A DNA stretch of 64,000 nt from IMG/VR virus record IMGVR_UViG_3300043410_001242; one strand, written 5' to 3'. This document shows, in pieces, positions 15,780 to 56,100 of this stretch. The translations under genes were made by a program, and so were the position numbers. The first letter of the stretch is position 1. Each line of letters starts with the position of its first letter. This DNA comes from a virus. The notes beneath the pieces were generated by a model. That model did no database searches and had not been told where the DNA came from. It worked only from the letters and a program-made list of their open reading frames with translations.

Positions 15780-16817
15780 ATGAGTATTCTAGATAAAATC
15801 AAAAAGAATTCCAGTATCAAGGATTCTGCAATTCTTTCTAAGTCCAAATTCTTTACAGAAAAGGACATGATTCCTACAGCAATTCCTATTATCAATGTGG
15901 CATTGTCTGCTAAACTTGATGGTGGCCTTACTCCAGGTCTTACAATGTGGGCAGGTCCAAGTAAACACTTTAAAACAGCATTTAGTCTGTTGATGGCTAA
16001 ATCATATTTGGAGAAATATGAAGATGCGGCTCTTCTTTTTTATGATTCTGAGTTTGGTACTCCACAGTCTTATTTTGACTCTTTTAATATTGACACTGAT
16101 AGAGTTCTCCACACTCCTATTACAGACATCGAACAACTTAAATTCGATATTATGAATCAACTTCAGAACATCGAACGTGGTGACCATCTAATCATTATAG
16201 TTGATTCAATTGGAAACCTTGCATCGAAAAAAGAAGTTGAAGATGCTCTGAATGAAAAGTCTGTAGCTGATATGTCTAGAGCAAAACAGATTAAGTCTCT
16301 ATTCCGCATGATTACTCCACATCTGACACTCAAAGATATTCCAATGGTGGTCGTTAATCACACCTACATGGAAATTGGTATGTTCCCCAAAGCCATCGTT
16401 GGTGGTGGTACAGGATCATATTATTCTGCTGATAATATCTTCATCATTGGTCGTCAACAGGAAAAAGAAGGACAGGAAATCGTTGGTTATAACTTCATCA
16501 TTAATGTTGAGAAGTCTAGATATGTTAAAGAGAAGTCTAAAATTCCTGTTACTGTATCTTATGATGGAGGCATCAGTCGTTGGTCTGGTTTATTGGATCT
16601 CGCTCTGGAATCTGGACATGTTGTGAAACCAAGCAACGGTTGGTATTCAAAAATGGATGAAAACGGTGAAATTGAAGATAAGAAATATAGAATCAAAGAC
16701 ACAGATAACAAAGATTTCTGGATGCCTATACTTAAGATGAAATCGTTTAGAGATTATATTGAAAACAAGTATAAAGTAGCTTCTATGGATATTATGCCTG
16801 AAGAACTGGAAATGTAA
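15780..16817 (+). CDS. uvsX: RecA-like recombinase UvsX
   Basis: GPSKHFKT, YDSEFG, DSIGNLAS, KSR. Confidence 0.97.
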   Translation: MSILDKIKKNSSIKDSAILSKSKFFTEKDMIPTAIPIINVALSAKLDGGLTPGLTMWAGPSKHFKTAFSLLMAKSYLEKYEDAALLFYDSEFGTPQSYFDSFNIDTDRVLHTPITDIEQLKFDIMNQLQNIERGDHLIIIVDSIGNLASKKEVEDALNEKSVADMSRAKQIKSLFRMITPHLTLKDIPMVVVNHTYMEIGMFPKAIVGGGTGSYYSADNIFIIGRQQEKEGQEIVGYNFIINVEKSRYVKEKSKIPVTVSYDGGISRWSGLLDLALESGHVVKPSNGWYSKMDENGEIEDKKYRIKDTDNKDFWMPILKMKSFRDYIENKYKVASMDIMPEELEM

Positions 16818-37731: not shown

Positions 37732-39540
37732 ATGGAAGAATACCTTGGTTTACAAATTGATTTAGATAGAGATTCTTTGTTTGATGAATTGGGCATCAAA
37801 CGATTACAAGAATCTTATATGCGTGAGGACGAAACGTCACCACAACATCGTTTTGCTTTTGTTTCTAAAGCATTTGGTTCCAATCTGGAACACTCACAAA
37901 GACTATATAATTATGCTAGTAAACATTGGTTATCATATTCTACTCCCATTCTTTCGTTCGGTCGTAGTAAAAGAGGGTTGCCAATATCATGTTTCTTAAA
38001 CTTTATAGAAGATACTGCGGAGGGATTAGTTGACAACTTATCGGAAACCAATTGGCTTAGTATGCTCGGCGGTGGGGTTGGCATTGGCTTTGGTATTCGT
38101 TCCGCTGATGATAAGTCTACTGGTGTTATGCCGCATCTTAAGATCTATGACTCCAGTTCTTTGGCTTACAGACAGGGACGTACTCGTAGGGGTTCTTATG
38201 CTGCTTATCTTGACATATCTCATCCTGATATAATTTCATTCTTAGAAATGAGAAAACCAACGGGCGATCCTAACGTCCGTTGTTTGAACTTACATCATGG
38301 TGTTAATATTACAGATGACTTCATGCACATCATTGAAAAGTGCATGATTGATCCAGAATCGAATGATGATTGGGAATTGAAAGATCCACACACCGGTGAA
38401 GTCAGAGAAGTGGTTTCAGCTAAGCACCTATGGCAGATGTTAATCGAAATCAGAATGCAGACTGGTGAACCTTATTTGCACTTTATTGACACAAGTAACA
38501 GACAGTTACCAGATTTTTTAAAGAAAAGAGGTTTGAAAATTAATCAATCTAATCTTTGTTCAGAGATTATATTGCCAACAAATGAAGAGAGAACTGCTGT
38601 ATGTTGTTTATCATCACTCAACTTGGAATATTTCGATGATTGGAAGAATGATACTAATTTCTTGCGTGACGTTGCTGAAATGCTTGATAATGTCCTTCAG
38701 TATTTCATTGATAATGCTCCTGATTCTATCTCTAGGGCACGCCATAGCGCATATAGGGAGCGCTCAATTGGTGTTGGTGCTCTTGGCTTCCATGCCTATC
38801 TGCAACGCAATAGAATTGCTTTTGAAGGTGTTATGGCCAAAGTTGCAAATAACAGAATCTTCAAACATATCAAAGAAGGTTTAGACATTGCTAATATTGA
38901 GATCGGAAAAGAACGTGGAGAGGCCCCTGACGCTGAAGGAACTGGTCGTAGATTCTCACACACATGTGCTATTGCTCCTAATGCATCTTCTTCCATCATC
39001 ATGGGGAACACTTCTCCTAGTATAGAACCATATAGAGCCAACGCATATAGACAGGATACATTATCTGGTGCTTTCATGAATAAGAATAAGCATCTCGACA
39101 CTGTTATTCGTGAATATTGCAACAGTCCAACGCCAGACGGAAAGATTGGAATGGATTATGATGAAATCTGGTCTTCTATCATTGCAAATGATGGGTCTGT
39201 ACAACATTTGTCATGGATGGACGAAATGACTAAAGATGTATTCAAAACATCTATGGAAATTGACCAAAGATGGATTGTAGAATTGGCTGCTGATAGACAG
39301 AATCACATTGACCAATCACAATCTTTGAATTTATTCTTTAGACCTGATGCCAATATTAAATATGTCCACGCTATTCATTTTATGGCATGGAAGAAAGGTG
39401 TAAAGACTCTTTATTACTGTCGTTCAGAGAAAATTGGAAAAGCGGATAAGGTTTCCAAGAAAATTGAAAGAGAAGTTATCAAAGAACTTGATATGACTCA
39501 AATCGCACAAGGAAATGATTGTATTGCATGTGAAGGATAA
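37732..39540 (+). CDS. nrdA: class Ia ribonucleotide reductase alpha subunit (no ATP-cone)
   Basis: PISCF, SNLCSEI, IAPNASSS, TLYY, C-terminal CIACEG. Confidence 0.95.
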   Translation: MEEYLGLQIDLDRDSLFDELGIKRLQESYMREDETSPQHRFAFVSKAFGSNLEHSQRLYNYASKHWLSYSTPILSFGRSKRGLPISCFLNFIEDTAEGLVDNLSETNWLSMLGGGVGIGFGIRSADDKSTGVMPHLKIYDSSSLAYRQGRTRRGSYAAYLDISHPDIISFLEMRKPTGDPNVRCLNLHHGVNITDDFMHIIEKCMIDPESNDDWELKDPHTGEVREVVSAKHLWQMLIEIRMQTGEPYLHFIDTSNRQLPDFLKKRGLKINQSNLCSEIILPTNEERTAVCCLSSLNLEYFDDWKNDTNFLRDVAEMLDNVLQYFIDNAPDSISRARHSAYRERSIGVGALGFHAYLQRNRIAFEGVMAKVANNRIFKHIKEGLDIANIEIGKERGEAPDAEGTGRRFSHTCAIAPNASSSIIMGNTSPSIEPYRANAYRQDTLSGAFMNKNKHLDTVIREYCNSPTPDGKIGMDYDEIWSSIIANDGSVQHLSWMDEMTKDVFKTSMEIDQRWIVELAADRQNHIDQSQSLNLFFRPDANIKYVHAIHFMAWKKGVKTLYYCRSEKIGKADKVSKKIEREVIKELDMTQIAQGNDCIACEG

Positions 39541-40065: not shown

Positions 40066-40652
40066 TATACGCTGATTATATATACACCAAGAAAGTCAAT
40101 TTAGACTTAAATAAGATTCGTCAAAGTTGTTTTGTAATGCAAGATTACATTTTTTCTACTTTTGGTAATCAAACCAAATATTACACTGGAGAATCAACAT
40201 TGACAACACAACTATTTCTCAATTATAATTTACTGATGTATCCTAAACCGGGATTTCATCAATTATACTCAGAAATAAAAAACTTCTTCCATGAAGTATA
40301 TGATGGAACATATGAATCATTTTATATGCAAAGTTGGTTGAACTTCTATAATAAGGATGATTTCATAGATTGGCATAGTCACTGGCCAAAAGAAAAGGAA
40401 TCATGGCATGGTTTTTTCTGTGTTGACTGTGGTGAAAACATGAGTGGAACTTTATATCGAATAATGGACGTTCAGAATGAGATATTTGTTCCAAGTGAGA
40501 ACAATTTATTGGTTATAAGTAAAAGTGAGAAAGACATACATAAATCGACCGAGTGGTTAGATGAAAGAAATCCAAGAATAACTATTGCTTTCGATATAAT
40601 TCCAGACAAACACATCGATGTCAATTTACCAAACCACTGGATACCAACTTGA
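40062..40652 (+). CDS. 2OG-Fe(II) oxygenase-like protein
   Basis: SWLN, WHSH, HKS, RITIAFD. Confidence 0.65.
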   Translation: MIYADYIYTKKVNLDLNKIRQSCFVMQDYIFSTFGNQTKYYTGESTLTTQLFLNYNLLMYPKPGFHQLYSEIKNFFHEVYDGTYESFYMQSWLNFYNKDDFIDWHSHWPKEKESWHGFFCVDCGENMSGTLYRIMDVQNEIFVPSENNLLVISKSEKDIHKSTEWLDERNPRITIAFDIIPDKHIDVNLPNHWIPT

Positions 40653-40663
40653 TAGGATTATTA

Positions 40664-41644
40664 ATGAAGAAAATTAACAACTTAACAGAAGAACGGGCAT
40701 ATTTTAAACCATTTAATTATCCTTGGGCGTATGATGCTTGGTTAAAACACGAACAATCACATTGGCTTCACACAGAAGTTCCTATGCTTGAGGACGTTAA
40801 AGACTGGAAGAAAAAATTAACAAATGAAGAAAAACATTTTCTCACGCAAATTTTTAGATTTTTTACACAGGGAGACATTGACGTTGCTGGCGGTTATGTG
40901 CGTAATTATCTGCCTTATTTCCCTCAACCTGAAATTCGGATGATGTTGACTGGATTTGCAGCAAGAGAGGCATTACACATTGCTGCATATTCACACCTAA
41001 TCGAAACTCTTGGTTTACCAGAAACGACCTATAATGAATTTCTAGAATATACCGAAATGAAAGAGAAACATGACTATGTTATGGATCTTTCATCTAGAAA
41101 TGGAACAAAAGAGAATACAGCCAGACATATTGCAGTATTCTCAGCATTCACTGAAGGTATGCAACTTTTTTCTTCTTTTATTATGTTGCTTAATTTCCCC
41201 AGACATGGTAAAATGAAGGGTATGGGACAGATTGTTACTTGGTCGATTGTTGATGAGACTCAACATGCAGAATCGATGATCAAATTATTCAAGACCTACA
41301 TAGAAGAAAATCGTGAGATATGGAATGATGAACTGAAGTCTTCAATCTACACGGTTGCAGAAAGAATGGTTGAATTAGAGGATAAGTTTATTGATCTTGC
41401 ATTTTCTACCGGTGCAATGGAAAACATTACACACGAAGATGTAAAGAAATATATTCGTTATATCGCTGATCGCCGTTTGATCTCTATGGGACTCAAGGGC
41501 ATCTTCAAAGTAAAAAAGAACCCTTTGCCTTGGGTAGAGGAAATGATTAACGCACCAACACATACTAACTTTTTTGAGAATAGAGCTACAGACTATGCAA
41601 AAGGCGCACTAACAGGAAGTTGGGGTGATGTATGGGCTCATTAA
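40664..41644 (+). CDS. nrdB: ribonucleotide reductase beta subunit
   Basis: FFTQGD, EALH..AY, EG.QLFSSF, DETQH, NFFE. Confidence 0.95.
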   Translation: MKKINNLTEERAYFKPFNYPWAYDAWLKHEQSHWLHTEVPMLEDVKDWKKKLTNEEKHFLTQIFRFFTQGDIDVAGGYVRNYLPYFPQPEIRMMLTGFAAREALHIAAYSHLIETLGLPETTYNEFLEYTEMKEKHDYVMDLSSRNGTKENTARHIAVFSAFTEGMQLFSSFIMLLNFPRHGKMKGMGQIVTWSIVDETQHAESMIKLFKTYIEENREIWNDELKSSIYTVAERMVELEDKFIDLAFSTGAMENITHEDVKKYIRYIADRRLISMGLKGIFKVKKNPLPWVEEMINAPTHTNFFENRATDYAKGALTGSWGDVWAH

Positions 41645-41656
41645 CAAGGAATACAA

Positions 41657-41851
41657 ATGTCATTACACAAATCAATCAATGGAGAATGTTCATACTGTGA
41701 ATCTGCATTTTTGATCAATTACTCAGATATGTTAGCATCTAAAGAATATCCAGAATTCTGTCCTTTTTGCGGTGAACCCATCGAAGAATTGTCTGAAGAC
41801 TATATAGAAGAGTCTGAAGATGAATTTGAAGATGAGGAAACATGGCATTAG
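41657..41851 (+). CDS. small zinc-ribbon protein
   Basis: CSYC and FCPFCG, acidic tail. Confidence 0.65.
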   Translation: MSLHKSINGECSYCESAFLINYSDMLASKEYPEFCPFCGEPIEELSEDYIEESEDEFEDEETWH

Positions 41852-44991: not shown

Positions 44992-45036
44992 AATTTGTGG
45001 TATAATATATCCACAAATCTATTAGAGAACTATATT

Positions 45037-47190
45037 ATGATACTTGAATCCAAATCACTTCTTGCTAAATTGATGGCTACCGAGAACCTTGTGATCGAAC
45101 AACGCAAGGTTTCCACGGCTATGTTTGACACCGAGAATCGTGTCCTTATTGTTCCTGTTCTGGACAACAACATTCCGTCACACACTTATGATCTTTTTAT
45201 GGGTCATGAGGTCGGTCATGCTCTTTGGACGCCACCAAATGGTTCGGAAATCAGAAAACAATACAATGTTCCCCATTCTCTGGCGAATGTTATTGAAGAT
45301 TCTCGTATTGAACGCAAGATCAAACACAAATATCCTGGTCTCAAGAACTCTTTTGTCAAAGGATATCAAGATTTGCTTGATCGGAACTTCTTTGGCACCA
45401 AAGGACAGTCTATCAATCAGATGAAATTTCTTGACCGGCTGAATATTCACTGTAAAGGTGGCGCCGTATTGAACATTCACTTCACTGATGAAGAACGTGA
45501 AATGGTAAAATTGGTAGAATCTACTGAAACCTACGAAGATGTGATGGTAGTTTGCCAAAAAGTCATCAATTTTATCAAAGAATCCACTAAAAACATCAAA
45601 CTTCCTGAAATTAATAAAGAAGATTTTGATGTTTTTATTGATGATGAAGAGGAAGAACAAGACGATTCTCAAGAAGAAGAATCATATGACGAAGAACCTG
45701 TTGAAACAGAACCAAAAACTGTTGATGAAAGTGAAAACACAGAATCGGAAGATGAAAAATTTGGTGCTGACGTAACAAAAACTGTTGTTTCCGAAGATCC
45801 ATATGAAGACATTCGTGATCTTTTGGAATCTGACACTGAGGCTTCTTATAAACAGAACGAACAAAAACTGTTTTCAGAAGATCGCAGAGAAATTGTATAT
45901 GTGAATATTCCTAGACTGAACACAAAAGACTTTGTTGTTGACTATAAGGATGTATATTCACAATACGAACATGAAAGACTTACGACCGGTTATTTTCCAT
46001 CCACCGAATCCTATTGGTATGATCGTGAAGGTTTCATGAAGATTCGTGATGAAATCAAGACTGGTGTTTCTTACCTTGTAAAAGAGTTTGAAATGCGTAA
46101 GTCTGCTGACCAGTTGAAAAAGGCCACACCTGCAAAGACTGGTGATTTGGACATGAAGAAAATCTACTCACACGCCTTCAATGAAGATATCTTCAAGCGA
46201 ATCACTGTTATGCCTGGTGCCAAGTCTCATGGTCTGGTGATCTTCCTGGACTGGTCTGGTTCAATGACACAACATATCAGAAATACTGTTAAACAATTGT
46301 TTAATATTGTTATGTTCTGTAAGAAAGTTAATATTCCATATGAAGTATATACTTTCACCAATACTTCATTGGACAAATACAATTGGTCACAAAAACAAGT
46401 TCCTAATGATTTGATGTGTTCCAACTTCAAACTGATGAATATTCTGTCTCACAGAATGTCTGCAGCTGAATTCACCAAAGCTGCATCAGCAATGGTCAGT
46501 ATGAGTAAGGCTAATGGTGGTTCATATGATGAGATGCACGCTCTTCCCAGTATGTTCAGTATGGGTGGTACTCCACTGAACAGCACTATTATTGGTGCAA
46601 TGGAACTTATTCCTGAGTTTCAAAGGAAGAACAAATTGCAGATTGTCAATACTATCTTTCTTACTGATGGAGATTCTGATACAGGTCTTTACTTCTGCAA
46701 GAAAGAAGGTAATGGAATGTATGCAAGAGCAGTTGGTAGATATAACTATACAACCAACCAATCAACCAATCTGATTATGCGTGATCCTGTAACCAAGTAC
46801 AACCTATCTTTTAACTTGGATGATAATAGATCAGTAACATCATCATTTATTAGTATGTTGAAGCAAAGGGTCAATTGTAATGTTGTGGGTTTCTATATAC
46901 TATCACCGAAAGATTTTCGTAGGTTTGTAGATACCAGACTTCTGTACAAAGGATCTGATACTCAAAACATTCGTGCAGAGTTTAGTAAGAACCAGTGTGC
47001 TGTATTGAAAACTGAAGGTTATGATGAATACTACTTGCTTCGTAGTGACAAGAAAGATTCAGAAGAACCTGAGTTGGAAGTAAAAGAAAATGCAACAACC
47101 AAAGTACTGGCCAATGCATTTATCAAATACAACAACAAACGCAGTAATAACCGCGTGGTTCTAAATCGTTTTATCAACCTGATCGCATAA
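45037..47190 (+). CDS. zincin peptidase + VWA (CobT-like) protein
   Basis: KSLLAKLMATEN, HEVGHAL, MIDAS DWSGSM, GGTPL, LTDGD; promoter TTGACA 44978-TATAAT 45001. Confidence 0.85.
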   Translation: MILESKSLLAKLMATENLVIEQRKVSTAMFDTENRVLIVPVLDNNIPSHTYDLFMGHEVGHALWTPPNGSEIRKQYNVPHSLANVIEDSRIERKIKHKYPGLKNSFVKGYQDLLDRNFFGTKGQSINQMKFLDRLNIHCKGGAVLNIHFTDEEREMVKLVESTETYEDVMVVCQKVINFIKESTKNIKLPEINKEDFDVFIDDEEEEQDDSQEEESYDEEPVETEPKTVDESENTESEDEKFGADVTKTVVSEDPYEDIRDLLESDTEASYKQNEQKLFSEDRREIVYVNIPRLNTKDFVVDYKDVYSQYEHERLTTGYFPSTESYWYDREGFMKIRDEIKTGVSYLVKEFEMRKSADQLKKATPAKTGDLDMKKIYSHAFNEDIFKRITVMPGAKSHGLVIFLDWSGSMTQHIRNTVKQLFNIVMFCKKVNIPYEVYTFTNTSLDKYNWSQKQVPNDLMCSNFKLMNILSHRMSAAEFTKAASAMVSMSKANGGSYDEMHALPSMFSMGGTPLNSTIIGAMELIPEFQRKNKLQIVNTIFLTDGDSDTGLYFCKKEGNGMYARAVGRYNYTTNQSTNLIMRDPVTKYNLSFNLDDNRSVTSSFISMLKQRVNCNVVGFYILSPKDFRRFVDTRLLYKGSDTQNIRAEFSKNQCAVLKTEGYDEYYLLRSDKKDSEEPELEVKENATTKVLANAFIKYNNKRSNNRVVLNRFINLIA

Positions 47191-48978: not shown

Positions 48979-49215
48979 GTGAACGAAAAAATTAGACAAT
49001 TAATGATGGAGGCAGGTGAATATGCCAATTCAGTGTGGGTTGATCCTATCACAAACAAAGAAGATCATATATCTTGGCATGATCTGTACAATGAGAAGTT
49101 TGCTGAACTAATCATTAAAGATTGTGCTAAAAATTGCTTGGGTATCGTAAGTAGTGGTGGTGACTTAGACTTCGCTATTTGGAAGATTAAGAAAGAATAT
49201 GGTATTGAAGAATGA
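48979..49215 (+). CDS. hypothetical phage protein
   Basis: NEKIRQL..EA...EKFAELIIKDC. Confidence 0.6.
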   Translation: MNEKIRQLMMEAGEYANSVWVDPITNKEDHISWHDLYNEKFAELIIKDCAKNCLGIVSSGGDLDFAIWKIKKEYGIEE

Positions 49216-49595
49216 ATGATTGTCCTATCTGTGGTGATGAAGGTACTGTCACCGAACATACAAGACAAAATAACTCTGAATATAAGAATGAATACTTTAA
49301 AGGTCTTCTGATTGATTCCTCTGAATGCTCTGCATGTGGTTCTGAGTTTGCGACACCGGAGCAGATTAACAGAAATGCTCAGAGGGCCAGAGAGAGACTG
49401 AGAGAGGATGGTATTATAGGGAACGCAAAACCGATCCATGCTTGGATTGATGAGTGGGTCTTAGAGTCGCTTAGAGAGAGGGATAGAGAGATTACTCTGA
49501 GAGAAAAGTTATATGGCAAACCTACCAGGAAGGGTTCTGCCCGGAAATTCCGGTCCAGGAAAATTTTTTGGAATAAGAAAAATCGAAAATTCTGA
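49212..49595 (+). CDS. MqsA/YgiT-type zinc-finger protein lacking HTH
   Basis: CPICG..25-30 aa..CSACGSEFATPEQ..RN. Confidence 0.65.
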   Translation: MNDCPICGDEGTVTEHTRQNNSEYKNEYFKGLLIDSSECSACGSEFATPEQINRNAQRARERLREDGIIGNAKPIHAWIDEWVLESLRERDREITLREKLYGKPTRKGSARKFRSRKIFWNKKNRKF

Positions 49596-50848: not shown

Positions 50849-51070
50849 ATGGCTAAGTCAGATATTCGCGCTGAATTGAATACGGCAGTGGATGAATACC
50901 TCGCAAAAGGAGGTAAGATATTGGTATGCGAAACCAAGCAGGTAAAAGTATCCAGAAAGGTGAAGGTAAAACCCCACCTATTCATTAAACCATCTGAACC
51001 TCGTGGAGTGGTTTCTATGTTTTATCGTATTGATGAGAGACATAATGTAGGTGCTTGGAATAATTGGTAA
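50849..51070 (+). CDS. SutA-like RNAP-binding motif protein
   Basis: RAELNTAVDEYLAKGGKI. Confidence 0.55.
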   Translation: MAKSDIRAELNTAVDEYLAKGGKILVCETKQVKVSRKVKVKPHLFIKPSEPRGVVSMFYRIDERHNVGAWNNW

Positions 51071-51097: not shown

Positions 51098-51126
51098 ATT
51101 ATACACTAGGAGATACTATATGTCAA
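51098..51126 (-). promoter_or_regulatory. consensus leftward sigma70 promoter overlapping an RBS
   Basis: reverse complement TTGACA-17-TATAAT. Confidence 0.65.
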
Positions 51127-51293
51127 GCGTTTTAAATCAAATGGATTGGTTCGAAGAACTCGAATATGCACCTGAGAATACCATTGTAGAGGTATTAGAA
51201 GAGGATGAAGATAATGGTAATGATATTCGCACATATCGCAATTTTGATATTGATTTTGATGAAAGTCAATTTAGCGTTTGGGCAGATTTGTGA
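51120..51293 (+). CDS. 57-aa acidic protein
   Basis: SD AGGAG; MSSVLNQMDWFEELEYAPE...DIDFDESQFSVWADL. Confidence 0.55.
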   Translation: MSSVLNQMDWFEELEYAPENTIVEVLEEDEDNGNDIRTYRNFDIDFDESQFSVWADL

Positions 51294-51302
51294 TAATAAC
51301 TA

Positions 51303-51331
51303 TTGACTTTTCTGAGTATATGTGATATAAT
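51303..51331 (+). promoter_or_regulatory. sigma70 promoter reading into NrdR-box array
   Basis: TTGACT-17-TGaTATAAT; no sizeable ORF downstream. Confidence 0.7.
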
Positions 51332-51384
51332 GGAGAAGTAATATAAAAAATTTCTCTTGCCATACTCTCACTTAGTCGGACATA

Positions 51385-51567
51385 CCACTACATATAGTAT
51401 CAATCAATCGCTGACAACACTATATCCGCGACATGGTTCCGACTAACGACAGTGACCTCTACATATTGTGTCGCAATATCATTATAAGCACAAGATATAG
51501 TATCACATATCCTTATCAATTTACTATATCTTGTGTCTTTTTTATTCTAATATACTACATATAGTGT
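51385..51567. repeat. array of six NrdR-box-like pseudo-palindromes
   Basis: cores CTACATATAG 51388, CTATATCCGC 51420 (degenerate), CTACATATTG 51459, CAAGATATAG 51491, CTATATCTTG 51524, CTACATATAG 51555. Confidence 0.75.
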
Positions 51568-52198
51568 CCACGGATATATACTGTTTACACTTATTACCAT
51601 GGTATCTGGTATATTGTGGTTTTGGTATAACCTTATTACAATATGGACATTCTATTCTTGGTTGATTCTTAGCCTTCTGACTAATCTTCTCTCTGGCTAT
51701 ATCATCATGGGTTTTACCATACATTGCATTATTAATACCCTTAGACTTCACGGATAATTTGTTTCTGGATTCTTCTGTCCATATTCTATTCTTATTTGAT
51801 TGTATAATGGCATTTATAGACTTTTGGTTATTAGTCTTACCATATCTTGGACTATTCTCACCTGATAGCATTATACTATATTGTTTTTTTCTTTCTTCGG
51901 TGAATACATAACCTGACGCACCTTCGGCACCATCGGTTCTATTTCTTAATATACCCGTATTATTGTCTTTTCTGCCGAACCAACGGATATAATATCTCTC
52001 AAGGATAAATGACTGTAATTCGGTTAGATTATCTTGTATGATTATTATACGGGATTTATCTTTGGGTGGTAGTATTTCACCTTTCTTATATTTGTTATAG
52101 GCTCTATCGTCTTTGCCTTTACCAATATAATATGGTGTATAATCCTCTCTCAAATAGGCATAAACATAGAATGGTGTTGATTGAGCATATATACTCAT
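51542..52198 (-). CDS. GIY-YIG homing endonuclease with NUMOD3-like repeats
   Basis: [35 protein letters not shown]....REKIS; late promoter TATAAATA on - strand 52290-52297. Confidence 0.88.
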
Positions 52199-52500
52199 AG
52201 CTGATACTCCTCTGTAGTATTAGAACCCTTGGATATTACCAGTATCGCGAAGGGTATTTTTCGTGCGTTAGCACTTGTGTTGACACTATTATTTATACAT
52301 TATATTATGAAATCTATATCTGTCTTATCCTTTCTATTAAACCTTTCTATGGTACTATCCATTATAGCATTCTCATATAGAGGATGGATTGGTATTATCT
52401 CTATTATATCTGGTATTCGGTTATGATTAATATTATTCTATTGGTATCTGTATTGGTTATATTCTTTTATTGTTTATTCTTTTTCTATGAGGATTAGGTT

Positions 52501-53172
52501 ATGGATATATCATTAACAGTTATTAGAAAGATAGCCAAAGAGAATGGTCTATCTGTTAATAATAATATACTGGCATTTGCACAAGGTATATCCAATCATG
52601 TATCGGGTAAGATTGAAACTGATATTAAGAAAAAGGTGGCGCGGGATATTGTTGAGATGCTCGGTACTAATGTTACTACCTCTGGTGGTACTGTTAAGGT
52701 TAAGTTTCGGAATGATTTGAGTTTTGATGATGTACGGGCATTATTTGATTATGATGGTGTGAATGGTGGTTTAGTATGGAAGAAGGACGGTAAACCTGCC
52801 GGTTCTGTTGAGCATCATGGTTATATTCGTATTGGTGTAAGAGGGAAAACATATAGGGCACACCATTTGGTATGGTTATGGCATCACGGTGTATTTCCTG
52901 ATACTATTGTGGACCATATTAATCAGATCAAGAATGATAATAGGATTGAGAATCTTCGGTTATCTGACCCGACTCTGAATAACCTTAATCGGACGACCGG
53001 TTCCAATAACACCTCTGGATATAAGGGTGTATCATATCTCAAGAAACGGAACAAGTATGAGGCATCCATTACAGTCAAAGGGAAAATGCACCGGTTAGGT
53101 CAATTCAATACCTTTGAGGAGGCCAAGTATGCACGAATGGCATATGAGGAAGAATTGTTGAACGGTGGTTAG
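52501..53172 (+). CDS. HNH + AP2-domain endonuclease
   Basis: AHHLVW, VDHIN..KNDNRIENLR, NTSGYKGVS, LGQF.T.EEA. Confidence 0.88.
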   Translation: MDISLTVIRKIAKENGLSVNNNILAFAQGISNHVSGKIETDIKKKVARDIVEMLGTNVTTSGGTVKVKFRNDLSFDDVRALFDYDGVNGGLVWKKDGKPAGSVEHHGYIRIGVRGKTYRAHHLVWLWHHGVFPDTIVDHINQIKNDNRIENLRLSDPTLNNLNRTTGSNNTSGYKGVSYLKKRNKYEASITVKGKMHRLGQFNTFEEAKYARMAYEEELLNGG

Positions 53173-53230
53173 CAGACTATTTCACGGATGCTGGCTTGAC
53201 TTTTTGGTTGGTTCTGATACAATCTTTCCA
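53170..53230 (+). promoter_or_regulatory. early promoter cassette 3
   Basis: AGCAGACTATTTCACGG..GCTTGACT-16-TACAAT (GGTTCTGATACAATC). Confidence 0.75.
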
Positions 53231-56100
53231 TGATGAAAGTTAAGACAAAGACAGCGAAAGAAATGGTACTGGTATCCGAATGGTTAACTCGGTTTGGTAT
53301 CAATTACACTATTAAAGGGTTCACTATTCAATTCTCTGATATTGAATATCATCATTGGTTGATTATTAAATCAGCCGTGAGATTGAATACTGATTCTGTT
53401 ATTGACCATTTGGAGATTGAATAAAATGAAAGTTTATATTGTAGTATATCGTTATTGGGATGATTCTGAAGTGATTGGCGTATTTACTTCGGCAGATATT
53501 GCAGAGAAGTATATCGAGCAGTCTATTCTTACCTGTTTTGGTAAGAAGGCAGATATTAGTAAGTATCGTGATTGTTATTCGGTTTCTATTGAAGATGTTA
53601 TTGCGGAGTAGTGGTGAATATTATGAAAGATTATAAAGAAATGTCTGAATCTGAATTGGTATCTGAATATAAGGATATTTGTGAAGAATTGGAAGAATGT
53701 GAGTTTGGTTCTTATTCCTACGATGTTTTGAATATGGAATTACAGTATATTCACAGCGTATTATCTGAAAGAGGTTTATAATGTGTGAATGTAATTATGT
53801 TTATTGTGTAATGGAATCTTCATACCCTGCACCTATGGGATTGAGGGTATTCTCTACCTATGCAAAGGCAGATGCATTTAGAAAGGTATTGATGGAAAAG
53901 TATCCTAATTATTCTAATTTTTATGTTGAAAGTATTGAGGTTGATGAATAATGAAAATCAAATATAGAGTTCGTTGTAAGGGTTTAAGGTGGTATGCGAC
54001 ATTTAATACCTTATCAGAAGCAGAAAATCATGCTAAAACCGCATGGGAATTTAAGGATAGTCCCAATAACTATATTGAAGTGATTATAACTGCAAAAGTT
54101 TAATTGGATTTGGAGTTCATATTATGAAAGGTTATATTGTATATCATTATGCAGAGAATTCTCAAGAATGGATGAATGAGTTATTCAAAGAGAATAAGTT
54201 TCCGGTATTTGATTTTGTATCTGACGATAGAGTATTAGCCATGGAGAAACATACCGAATTAGGTGGTATGGATAAGGGTTATTATATTGCACAAGTATCT
54301 GAAATGGTAATGGGAGAATGAATAATGTGGTTTTATATAACGTATTGGTCGAATCTTGATAAATGTTATGGTGAAGATACTATATGGGCAGATTCTTCTG
54401 AATCAGCAAAGAGTATATTCTTTGAATCTCTCGCAAATCATGATTGTGAAATAGTATCCGTGGAGATTGAATAATGGAAGATGAATATAAAAAGTTTATT
54501 AAGGTTGAAGAAGTGGTTGAGCATACACTTGAAATTGATATTGATGAATATGATGATCCCTGTCCTGATTGTGGTAAGCAATTAAAAATGTCCAATTCTG
54601 GTGGTGTATATTGTTCTTGTGGGTATTGGTTCTGTTATTAGAGGGGTGAATTATGACTAATGAAGTAATGATTGCCTCAGTAATGGGGTTTGTGTTGATT
54701 ATAATGGCGTATTACATTATTACAATTTAATTATGAAAGTATATAATGATTTATATTATGTAAAAGAATTGGAGATTGAATAATGAATAAAGTATTAGAT
54801 TTATATTGGAGTGATATGTATAATGAAATCAAGAATGGTAATATATCACCTGATGAATTTCATCAATGGTTATGGGATATATCAGATCAATCCTATCGGA
54901 ATGGTTATAATGATAGTGACCGCGTGAATACTGGTGGTGTATAATGAAAGTTTATATTATTATTGAAACTGGTACTCATGGTCGTGATTGTATCTATGGA
55001 GTATTTGCGTCTAGAGAATCAGCATCTAATTGGATTGATAATCAACCTTGGTTATCTGAAGTAGATAAAGAGTTTCTTATTATTATTGAAGAAGAATTGA
55101 GGGTTGAATAATGAAAAAGACATATATCATATATTGGAATTTTGATGGACGGATAGTTCAAAATCGTGAGAAATGTACCTATGAAGAATTAAAAAAACAT
55201 ATCCATAAAACGATAACTGAATATAAAGCAAATATAGAATATGTGGAAGAAATTATAGAATCGCGGGCCCGAATTGATATAGATGGAAAAGAACCGAAAA
55301 CCTTTATTGGTCCGAAGTCAGACAAAAAGTCGTTATTGGAAATGATTGAGGCAATACCTAGACGCATTGAGCCATTAGGCGGTCAGAGATTCAGCTACGT
55401 CAAACTTGCAGAAGTAATTGACACCATAAAGGACTATTATGGAGTATTGTAAGATAATGGTAGAAATGCAGAATCGCGTATTAGATTTATATTGGAGTGA
55501 TATGTATAATGAAATCATCAAGGGTAATGTATCACCGGATGAATTTCATCAATGGTTATGGGATATATCGGAACAATCATATCGGGATGGTTATAATGAT
55601 AGTGACCGTGTGAATACTGGTATTGTTGGAGAACCGCAATAATGGAAAATGATTATAATAAGTTTATTAGGGAAATATCAGACGAATACCTATTCAAATC
55701 TGATATTGATGATGTTGAGGAGTTTATTGAAACCAAGGATTTTGAATCGTTTGGTGTAGAATATGAAACCGTGGTATTTGATGTTACCATGTTTATATTA
55801 GAGCAAGATTATGAGTGGGATGAATAATGAATAATAGAGATAGTGTAGTCCAATTGAGAGAGATTATAGAATGGATTAAGGAGATTGATACAGGGAATGA
55901 AAACTATAATTATAAACTGTTGAAAGTCCAGCAGTTTATAGAAGATATTGTTATTGATATGGTATATGATAAACTGGATAATGGGAGTGAATAATGAATA
56001 ATTGTGGTGAATCCATATTCGTTTTTATTCTATTCACTCTATTTGTATTGGGTACATGGAAAGCATTTGAGATTATTATTTGGTTATTTCAACACGTTAG
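53230..56100 (+). other. train of ~18 translationally coupled micro-ORFs (about 25-115 aa)
   Basis: repeated GGAG/GAGG..GAATAATG stop-start junctions; includes 53230, 53426, 54124, 55111, 55439, 55642 ORFs. Confidence 0.65.
54792..55621 (+). repeat. 144-bp direct repeat (54792-54935 and 55478-55621), duplicated micro-gene
   Basis: both encode VLDLYWSDMYNEI..G...PDEFHQWLWDIS.QSYR.GYNDSDRVNTG. Confidence 0.9.

Follow-up and report, generated by a model that had tools for sequence, protein, structure and literature searches.

The window, the whole stretch of 64,000 nucleotides that was analysed, is part of a T4-like myovirus with 36% G+C and 31 tRNA genes, and its family-B DNA polymerase is approximately 50% identical to cyanomyophage polymerases. 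Small plus-strand early genes run from approximately 47 kb onward, and among them lie a sigma-70-type promoter, a non-coding leader and an array of 16-nt palindromes (Table 1). The neighbours of the array are small ORFs of no assigned function and two homing-endonuclease genes, with no ribonucleotide reductase (RNR) operon or nrdR promoter there and no nrdR-like ORF within the 64-kb window. A preliminary description of this DNA had placed the phage nrdAB genes 10-14 kb away without a visible NrdR box and had remarked that the phage NrdA lacks an ATP-cone. Both statements agree with the present analysis: nrdA (37732-39540) and nrdB (40649-41644) lie 10-14 kb upstream of the array, no NrdR box is found upstream of either gene (best score 7.6 bits), and NrdA gives no profile match to an ATP-cone. 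Megablast of the region against GenBank phages returned nothing, and the one feature recovered by distant blastn was the endonuclease gene, in cyanophages. No exact match is on record for the product of the 57-aa gene or for that of the GIY-YIG gene.

Table 1. Features of the array locus in window coordinates; L-numbers denote loci compared with the window.
Feature	Position	Strand	Evidence or remark
57-aa early gene upstream of the module	51120..51293	+	synteny anchor with relatives
Sigma-70-type promoter, TTGACT-17 nt-TATAAT, TG-extended	51303..51331	+	11/12; predicted start ~51338
Most conserved leader block, core ACTTAGTCGGACA	51362..51384	+	five-phage alignment; 22/23 identical to L121
NrdR-type box 1	51385..51400	.	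6/6 invariant positions, 16.9 bits, without valid partner
Box 2 of the preliminary description, not valid	51417..51432	.	T11 and G13 missing (4/6), 4.3 bits
Phased NrdR-type chain, boxes 3-6	51456-51471, 51488-51503, 51521-51536, 51552-51567	.	6/6 positions, 13.0-17.0 bits
Terminator-like element	51489..51546	+	boxes 4/5 inverted repeat, then T-run
GIY-YIG/NUMOD3 homing-endonuclease gene, inserted	51542..52198	-	Pfam NUMOD3 6e-14; PHROG homing endonuclease; YVYAY...YYIGKG motif
End of ancestral leader, ACGGATATAT	51570..51579	+	endonuclease insertion begins directly after
HNH-AP2 homing-endonuclease gene, inserted	52501..53172	+	Pfam HNH_3 9e-12 and AP2; missing from L121
Cassette-type promoter TTGACT-16 nt-TACAAT, now serving the downstream gene	53196..53223	+	same cassette before orthologs in L172, L173 and L174
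64-aa gene	53230..53424	+	directly after the leader in L121, product 81% identical

The promoter and the lack of any sizeable plus-strand ORF behind it had likewise been proposed beforehand and are borne out here. Box 1 begins approximately 47 nt and the chain of boxes 3-6 approximately 118 nt past the predicted transcript start, the sites together spanning 47-230 nt, and a promoter scan of the region found no convincing promoter that overlaps any box. Over 14 nt, non-consensus positions included, box 5 is the exact reverse complement of box 4, and the two form a perfect 14-bp inverted repeat (arms 51489-51502 and 51522-51535) that is followed on the plus strand by a T-run at 51538-51546; the minus strand carries no T-run. 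The RNA fold of 51338-51550 has a z-score of -4.6, and the predicted transcript of approximately 205 nt terminates in a 15-bp hairpin and a U-run. This element resembles intrinsic terminators at convergent gene ends in its 14-bp hairpin and T-run on the plus strand, before the 3' end of the convergent gene. It differs from them in its AT-rich stem (4 of 14 pairs are G-C) and 19-nt loop, in place of a G+C-rich stem and short loop, and in that each arm is a full NrdR-type box in phase; the long loop is the reason that a terminator consensus scan missed the hairpin. Box 6 lies beyond the terminator-like element and is overlapped by the last 8 codons of the GIY-YIG gene.

Other features of the early region and the nrd genes were recorded alongside the array. 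An ORF at 49212-49595 was considered as a phage NrdR candidate and rejected, since its product, a 127-aa zinc-ribbon protein with a basic tail, is Lar/MqsA-like (best match Lar, E 9e-6, then the MqsA N-domain) and matches the NrdR zinc ribbon only at E = 0.23. Directly after nrdB, a 64-aa zinc-ribbon ORF at 41657-41851 (CSYC...CPFC) ends in a very acidic tail (...EETWH), and NrdB itself ends in ...GDVWAH; the ORF may encode a partner of the NrdA-binding NrdB tail, or a mimic of it. A 73-aa early protein encoded at 50849-51070 scores 28.3 bits against the SutA RNA-polymerase-binding domain (Pfam cut-off 29.3 bits; E 1e-6) and may be a modulator of host RNA polymerase. A perfect 12/12 sigma-70 promoter on the minus strand (51126-51098) points leftward over the start codon of the 57-aa gene and is kept in L121 (15855-15827), and a transcript from it would be antisense to the upstream early genes.

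Identity of the repeated palindromes

The preliminary description had reported six 16-mers, one of them degenerate, and had taken them for NrdR boxes in three correctly spaced pairs. All six are present where reported, with start-to-start spacing of 32, 39, 32, 33 and 31. A 2026 mutational study identified six highly conserved positions of the NrdR box, C4, A6, A8, T9, T11 and G13 (PMC13584703), and boxes 1, 3, 4, 5 and 6 carry all six, with flanks that match the acaC...Gtgt consensus. Only two positions distinguish box 1 from the second box of E. coli nrdEF (PMC13584703). Box 2, the degenerate one, fails at two of the critical positions and its G sits 7 bp from C4, a shift that abolishes binding when introduced at E. 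coli nrdEF (PMC13584703); this 16-mer is part of a conserved leader block, CACTAT..CCGCGAC.

Binding by NrdR needs two boxes, and the length of the linker between them matters while its sequence does not (PMC13584703); tight binding by four NrdRs was found at linkers of 14-17 bp or 24-27 bp (PMC12051234). The linkers between boxes 3 and 4, 4 and 5, and 5 and 6 measure 16, 17 and 15 bp, inside the tightly bound 14-17 bp range, which favours NrdR identity. Boxes 1 and 2 are also separated by 16 bp, yet box 2 is invalid, so that box 1 is solitary and, of the three pairs proposed, a phased chain of boxes 3-6 stands. The five linkers of the array show no mutual sequence similarity, as at natural NrdR sites, and because they are unrelated a tandem duplication is ruled out as the origin of the array. 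A horizontal origin also found no backing, as blastn against all fetched loci gave box-length matches only.

The window was scored with a log-odds matrix derived from ten boxes, of E. coli and S. coelicolor, for which NrdR binding has been measured. Among approximately 64,000 window positions the five boxes occupy ranks 1-5 with scores of 13.0-17.0 bits, inside the range of the training boxes, the best position outside the array reaches 11.3 bits, and box 2 ranks 170. Phased pairs score 27-30 bits, whereas no pair in 200 Markov simulations exceeded 21. The six-position criterion selects 23 sixteen-mers across the window, approximately the chance expectation, and 5 of the 23 fall in the 183 bp of the array. 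Boxes of at least 13 bits, five of which are observed, occurred with a mean of 0.008 and a maximum of 1 in 5000 dinucleotide-preserving shuffles of 51380-51575 (196 bp). The repeats are probably NrdR-type operator boxes, arranged as a phased chain of four and one solitary box, on the combined strength of their invariant positions, flanks, linkers and matrix ranks.

The promoter-leader module in related phages

Relatives of the phage were found through its 731-aa protein (44995-47190), which has homologs on four IMG/VR contigs, L121 among them, and further versions of the module (L175, L177 and L178, the sequence of L179 being that of L178) were found through 57-aa homologs in a large protein collection. 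Neither the 57-aa nor the 64-aa neighbour gave a match when its protein was searched singly against IMG/VR, and a conserved leader 19-mer searched in IMG/VR and metagenomes recovered the L121 phage again and chance matches only. A non-coding promoter-leader module of 230-330 nt is shared by five phages: window 51296-51600, L121:16039-16370, L175:978-1222, L177:1640-1866 and L178:548-790. In L121, L175 and L177 the module is immediately preceded by the gene for a homolog of the 57-aa protein (55-88% identity), and in L178 by a gene of 50 aa. Common to the five modules are the promoter, the near-invariant ACTTAGTCGGACA block at or near the transcript start, the CACTAT..CCGCGAC block and a CTACGGA end, while an IHF-like ATAAATCAATA..TTAC site is present in the four relatives but not in the window. 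In each relative the module runs into a small gene, and this gene differs between phages.

The closest view of the junction is given by L121, where only 340 bp, free of endonuclease genes, separate the 57-aa and 64-aa orthologs. Within this interval lie the same promoter (16046-16074, nearly identical to that of the window), the 23-nt block, a CACTATATCYGCGAC block and the ACGGATATAT block. In L121 the ACGGATATAT 10-mer lies within the spacer of a promoter-like site just ahead of the 64-aa gene, and in the window it stands directly after box 6, a placement which indicates that the two endonuclease genes split the leader end; box 6 aligns with the -35 of the same promoter-like site. The GIY-YIG gene is missing from L121, L175 and L177, and orthologs of the 64-aa gene elsewhere lie behind an ordinary promoter cassette without boxes. 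On this comparison, the two homing-endonuclease genes are later insertions that separate the module from the downstream small genes.

No NrdR-type box is present in the module of L121, L175, L177 or L178; the relatives carry a CCACTAGA-like sequence at the position of box 1 and unrelated sequence at those of boxes 3-6. Four related contig fragments (7-31% complete) likewise contain no phased box pairs, no AmoC and no ATP-cone, although fragments so incomplete carry little weight on this point. Given their absence from four relatives that share the module, the boxes are, as judged from the alignment, a lineage-specific gain inside an older conserved non-coding module. The array had been called an orphan, which is accurate in that no RNR gene is near but overlooks its place in a conserved promoter-leader module that ancestrally ran into a small early gene and was cut off by two endonuclease insertions. 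Neither the absence of the boxes from all four relatives nor the box 4/5 terminator-like hairpin figured in the preliminary description.

The junction at 51542-53172 is a homing-endonuclease hot spot, occupied in the window by the GIY-YIG and HNH-AP2 genes; the same HNH gene is found in the close relatives L170 and L171, and another relative carries a plus-strand GIY-YIG-like gene approximately 380 bp after the 57-aa gene. In another relative, L174:100-170 holds a strong TTGACA-17-TATAAT promoter and, behind it, three 20-nt repeats in tandem (core CCACTATTCACCACATATT), with no ORF for approximately 370 nt.

Box arrays in other phages and in bacteria

Similar arrays were sought with a pattern of three boxes in phase, of which the first has a CTACAT core, and the matches were afterwards validated with the matrix. 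In IMG/VR 40 loci were returned, and at 30 of them the matrix validated three to six boxes in a chain with 30-34 bp spacing. Three of them (L140, L150 and L152) lie directly upstream of nrdD or nrdB, are operators of the known type and serve as positive controls. A further 19 loci represent one widespread phage family with a four-box array near terL; in one subclade a DUF932 gene follows the array at a distance of approximately 130 bp, and the boxes are kept across 70% TerL identity. Members of the terL family (36-38% G+C; L132-L134, L138, L139, L143-L146, L148, L151, L155-L161, L163, L168 and L169) have a box spacing of 32-31-32 or 32-32-33 and no RNR gene in the fetched flanks. Approximately nine other IMG/VR arrays adjoin SNF2 helicase, GP88 or unknown genes, with no class I/III RNR homolog within 2.5 kb. 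A search of IMG/VR with a single box 15-mer was uninformative, returning more than 117 unrelated one-box matches.

In bacterial genomes the pattern matched at least 120 loci. Among the matches listed there are 56 validated chains, and 33 of the 56 lie within 2.5 kb of an NrdA/NrdD homolog, a figure that is a lower bound because it covers class I and class III RNR genes only. The other 23 of the 56 chains among the matches listed (L186, L195, L217, L241, L243, L251, L259, L281 and others) have no NrdA/NrdD homolog within 2.5 kb and may precede class II RNR, nrdR or other genes. The match in Ekhidna (L235) is a long tandem repeat with a 96-bp period and not an operator. As judged by the matrix and by neighbouring genes, the three-box pattern recovers true NrdR operators, and in phages these are often located at a distance from RNR genes; arrays of three to six boxes so placed are common in IMG/VR phage contigs. 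Similar arrays, which the preliminary description had suggested looking for in related phages, are present in none of the four relatives and in many unrelated IMG/VR phages. A recent regulon study of E. coli and P. aeruginosa found phased box pairs at no operons other than those of RNR (bioRxiv 10.1101/2025.03.28.645925), and a literature search found no paper on NrdR boxes in phage genomes.

The array shares with the bacterial RNR operators (E. coli nrdAB, nrdHIEF and nrdDG; S. coelicolor nrdAB and nrdRJ) the 16-bp partial palindrome with its six positions, the presence of at least two boxes 15-17 bp apart, and unrelated linkers; chains of three or four boxes, like the one here, are also found at bacterial nrdD and nrdA promoters. 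It differs from these operators in having no adjacent RNR or nrdR gene and no overlap with a promoter hexamer, and in lying inside a lytic phage leader. The other phage arrays are alike in their three to six strong boxes, 31-33 bp spacing, intergenic position and lack of a class I/III RNR homolog within 2.5 kb. They are unrelated to the array outside the boxes and lie in front of genes, whereas the one described here is now separated from its gene and also serves as a terminator-like hairpin.

Possible functions of the array

The gain of five strong sites in approximately 180 bp, with none in four relatives, points to selection, and the phage probably uses them to link its early region to the host dNTP sensor or to interfere with that sensor. 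The explanation that is preferred, though tentatively, is that the NrdR-type operators make transcription through the leader dATP-dependent. On this view the boxes were acquired by this lineage within a transcribed leader that belongs to a conserved early promoter module. Host NrdR would bind the DNA only as a tetramer with dATP and ATP, each tetramer taking two boxes 15-17 bp apart, and with plentiful dATP up to two tetramers could occupy boxes 3-6. NrdR-covered DNA lying 118-230 nt past the start site of promoter 51303-51331 would impede RNA polymerase in the leader and affect both rightward transcripts from this promoter and leftward transcripts out of the convergent GIY-YIG gene, making transcription across the early-region junction dependent on dNTP status. 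Before the insertions, the same sites would have stood directly before the 64-aa gene now at 53230 and acted at the entry to that gene. A phage NrdA without an ATP-cone might let dATP rise during infection and so promote NrdR loading. We infer NrdR binding, the presence of NrdR in the host and the effect on transcription, whereas the match to NrdR boxes, their phasing and non-random occurrence, the leader position, the lineage-specific gain, the endonuclease insertions and the terminator-like hairpin are shown.

Regulation in cis is favoured by the position of the array between a promoter and, formerly, a gene, and by the other phage arrays, which precede genes. It is weakened by the absence of an nrd gene nearby and of any overlapped promoter, by a distance of approximately 118 nt that is far for a classical NrdR operator, and by the lack of conservation of the boxes in four relatives. 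NrdR is missing from approximately 23% of bacterial genomes (PMC13584703), so the host may lack it, which weakens this reading further. A protein roadblock would also be partly redundant, since the box 4/5 hairpin and T-run alone would stop rightward transcripts, and the present function may be reduced or lost, since the insertions separate the array from downstream genes that have their own promoter.

The decoy reading, which the preliminary description preferred, is unlikely; it holds that the array regulates nothing in cis and that its sites, multiplied by replication, titrate dATP-loaded NrdR and so release the host nrd operons from repression. Several features would suit a decoy: strong sites in correct phase, their recent gain in non-coding DNA, no overlap with a recognisable promoter and, at present, no sense gene downstream. 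The upregulation of the NrdR regulon by phage infection in S. pneumoniae (PMC6755750) would suit it as well, though dNTP depletion alone suffices to account for this. The phage's own nrdAB genes are free of boxes, however, and would leave little to be gained from derepression of host RNR. T4-type phages also commonly shut off host transcription, which counts against a decoy. Known titration loci, such as E. coli datA for DnaA and plasmid iteron arrays, provide the model for a decoy in that they are clusters of high-affinity sites away from the target genes of the regulator, but the array here offers only approximately two tetramer sites per genome and NrdR binds only when dATP-loaded. Moreover, the arrays of other phages are intergenic before genes, as with the four boxes upstream of the DUF932 gene, and so resemble cis regulation. 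The computed evidence gives a decoy no edge over a dNTP-responsive transcript, the alternative offered in the preliminary description, and the leader position fits the latter somewhat better. A true decoy or sensor aimed at the host dNTP-sensing repressor, with replicating phage genomes titrating dATP-loaded NrdR or taking its occupancy as a read-out of the dNTP pool, is improbable.

Three other readings are less likely than a dNTP-responsive leader. The boxes may have once controlled the promoter of the 64-aa gene and may now be an inactive relic, recently cut off by insertion, with the box 4/5 hairpin kept as a terminator that shields the convergent endonuclease gene. This reading, to which a low probability is given, fits the insertion directly after box 6 in the spacer of the L121 promoter-like site, the separate cassette promoter of the downstream gene, and the exact complementarity of boxes 4 and 5 with their T-run, which exceeds what NrdR binding needs. 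It fits poorly with five boxes still intact at every invariant position, and the close relatives with the same HNH gene (L170 and L171) stop short of the array and so give no age for the insertion.

Much less probable is that the repeats are sites for a phage protein, either iterons or origin repeats, with promoter, repeats and AT-rich DNA acting as an R-loop or initiator-dependent origin; both iterons and an origin were mentioned in the preliminary description. A strong promoter followed by repeats and no ORF would be in keeping with an origin, T4 oriF and oriG each consist of a promoter and a downstream unwinding element, and the promoter and tandem repeats of L174 show a comparable layout. 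The origin finds no support at the array, however, as the palindromes match the NrdR box at all invariant positions and flanks with NrdR spacing, no further copy of the motif occurs in the 64 kb, the repeats are missing from relatives that share the module, and no candidate initiator gene adjoins the array. Least credible of all is a purely RNA function, a structured small RNA of approximately 205 nt with the boxes as by-products of its hairpins: the fold, the terminal hairpin with U-run and the 5' block kept in five phages speak for it, but the leader of L121 is not significantly more structured than its shuffled versions (z = -1.5) and lacks a terminator, box 6 lies past the terminator, Rfam has no meaningful match for the region, and pairing leaves the 16-nt consensus, the flanks and the 31-33 nt phasing unexplained.

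In the literature searched, NrdR is treated as an RNR-specific repressor. A four-box array in the early leader of a lytic phage, together with approximately ten independent phage lineages that carry similar arrays away from RNR genes, suggests that phages read or manipulate the host dATP/ATP sensor. What seems to be new here is the occurrence of NrdR-type operators in a phage outside an RNR context, doubling as a terminator; the carriage of such operators seems general among phages. The idea is directly testable, since purified NrdRs bind heterologous boxes in vitro. If phages do so, the arrays offer a simple handle on how phage gene expression is timed to nucleotide supply, and they bear on anti-phage defences that deplete dNTPs, under which NrdR would dissociate and repression at the phage sites would be lifted. 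If the decoy or sensor reading is true, the many multi-box arrays away from RNR genes in unrelated phages would be a general and undescribed route by which phages tap or disarm a host metabolic repressor.
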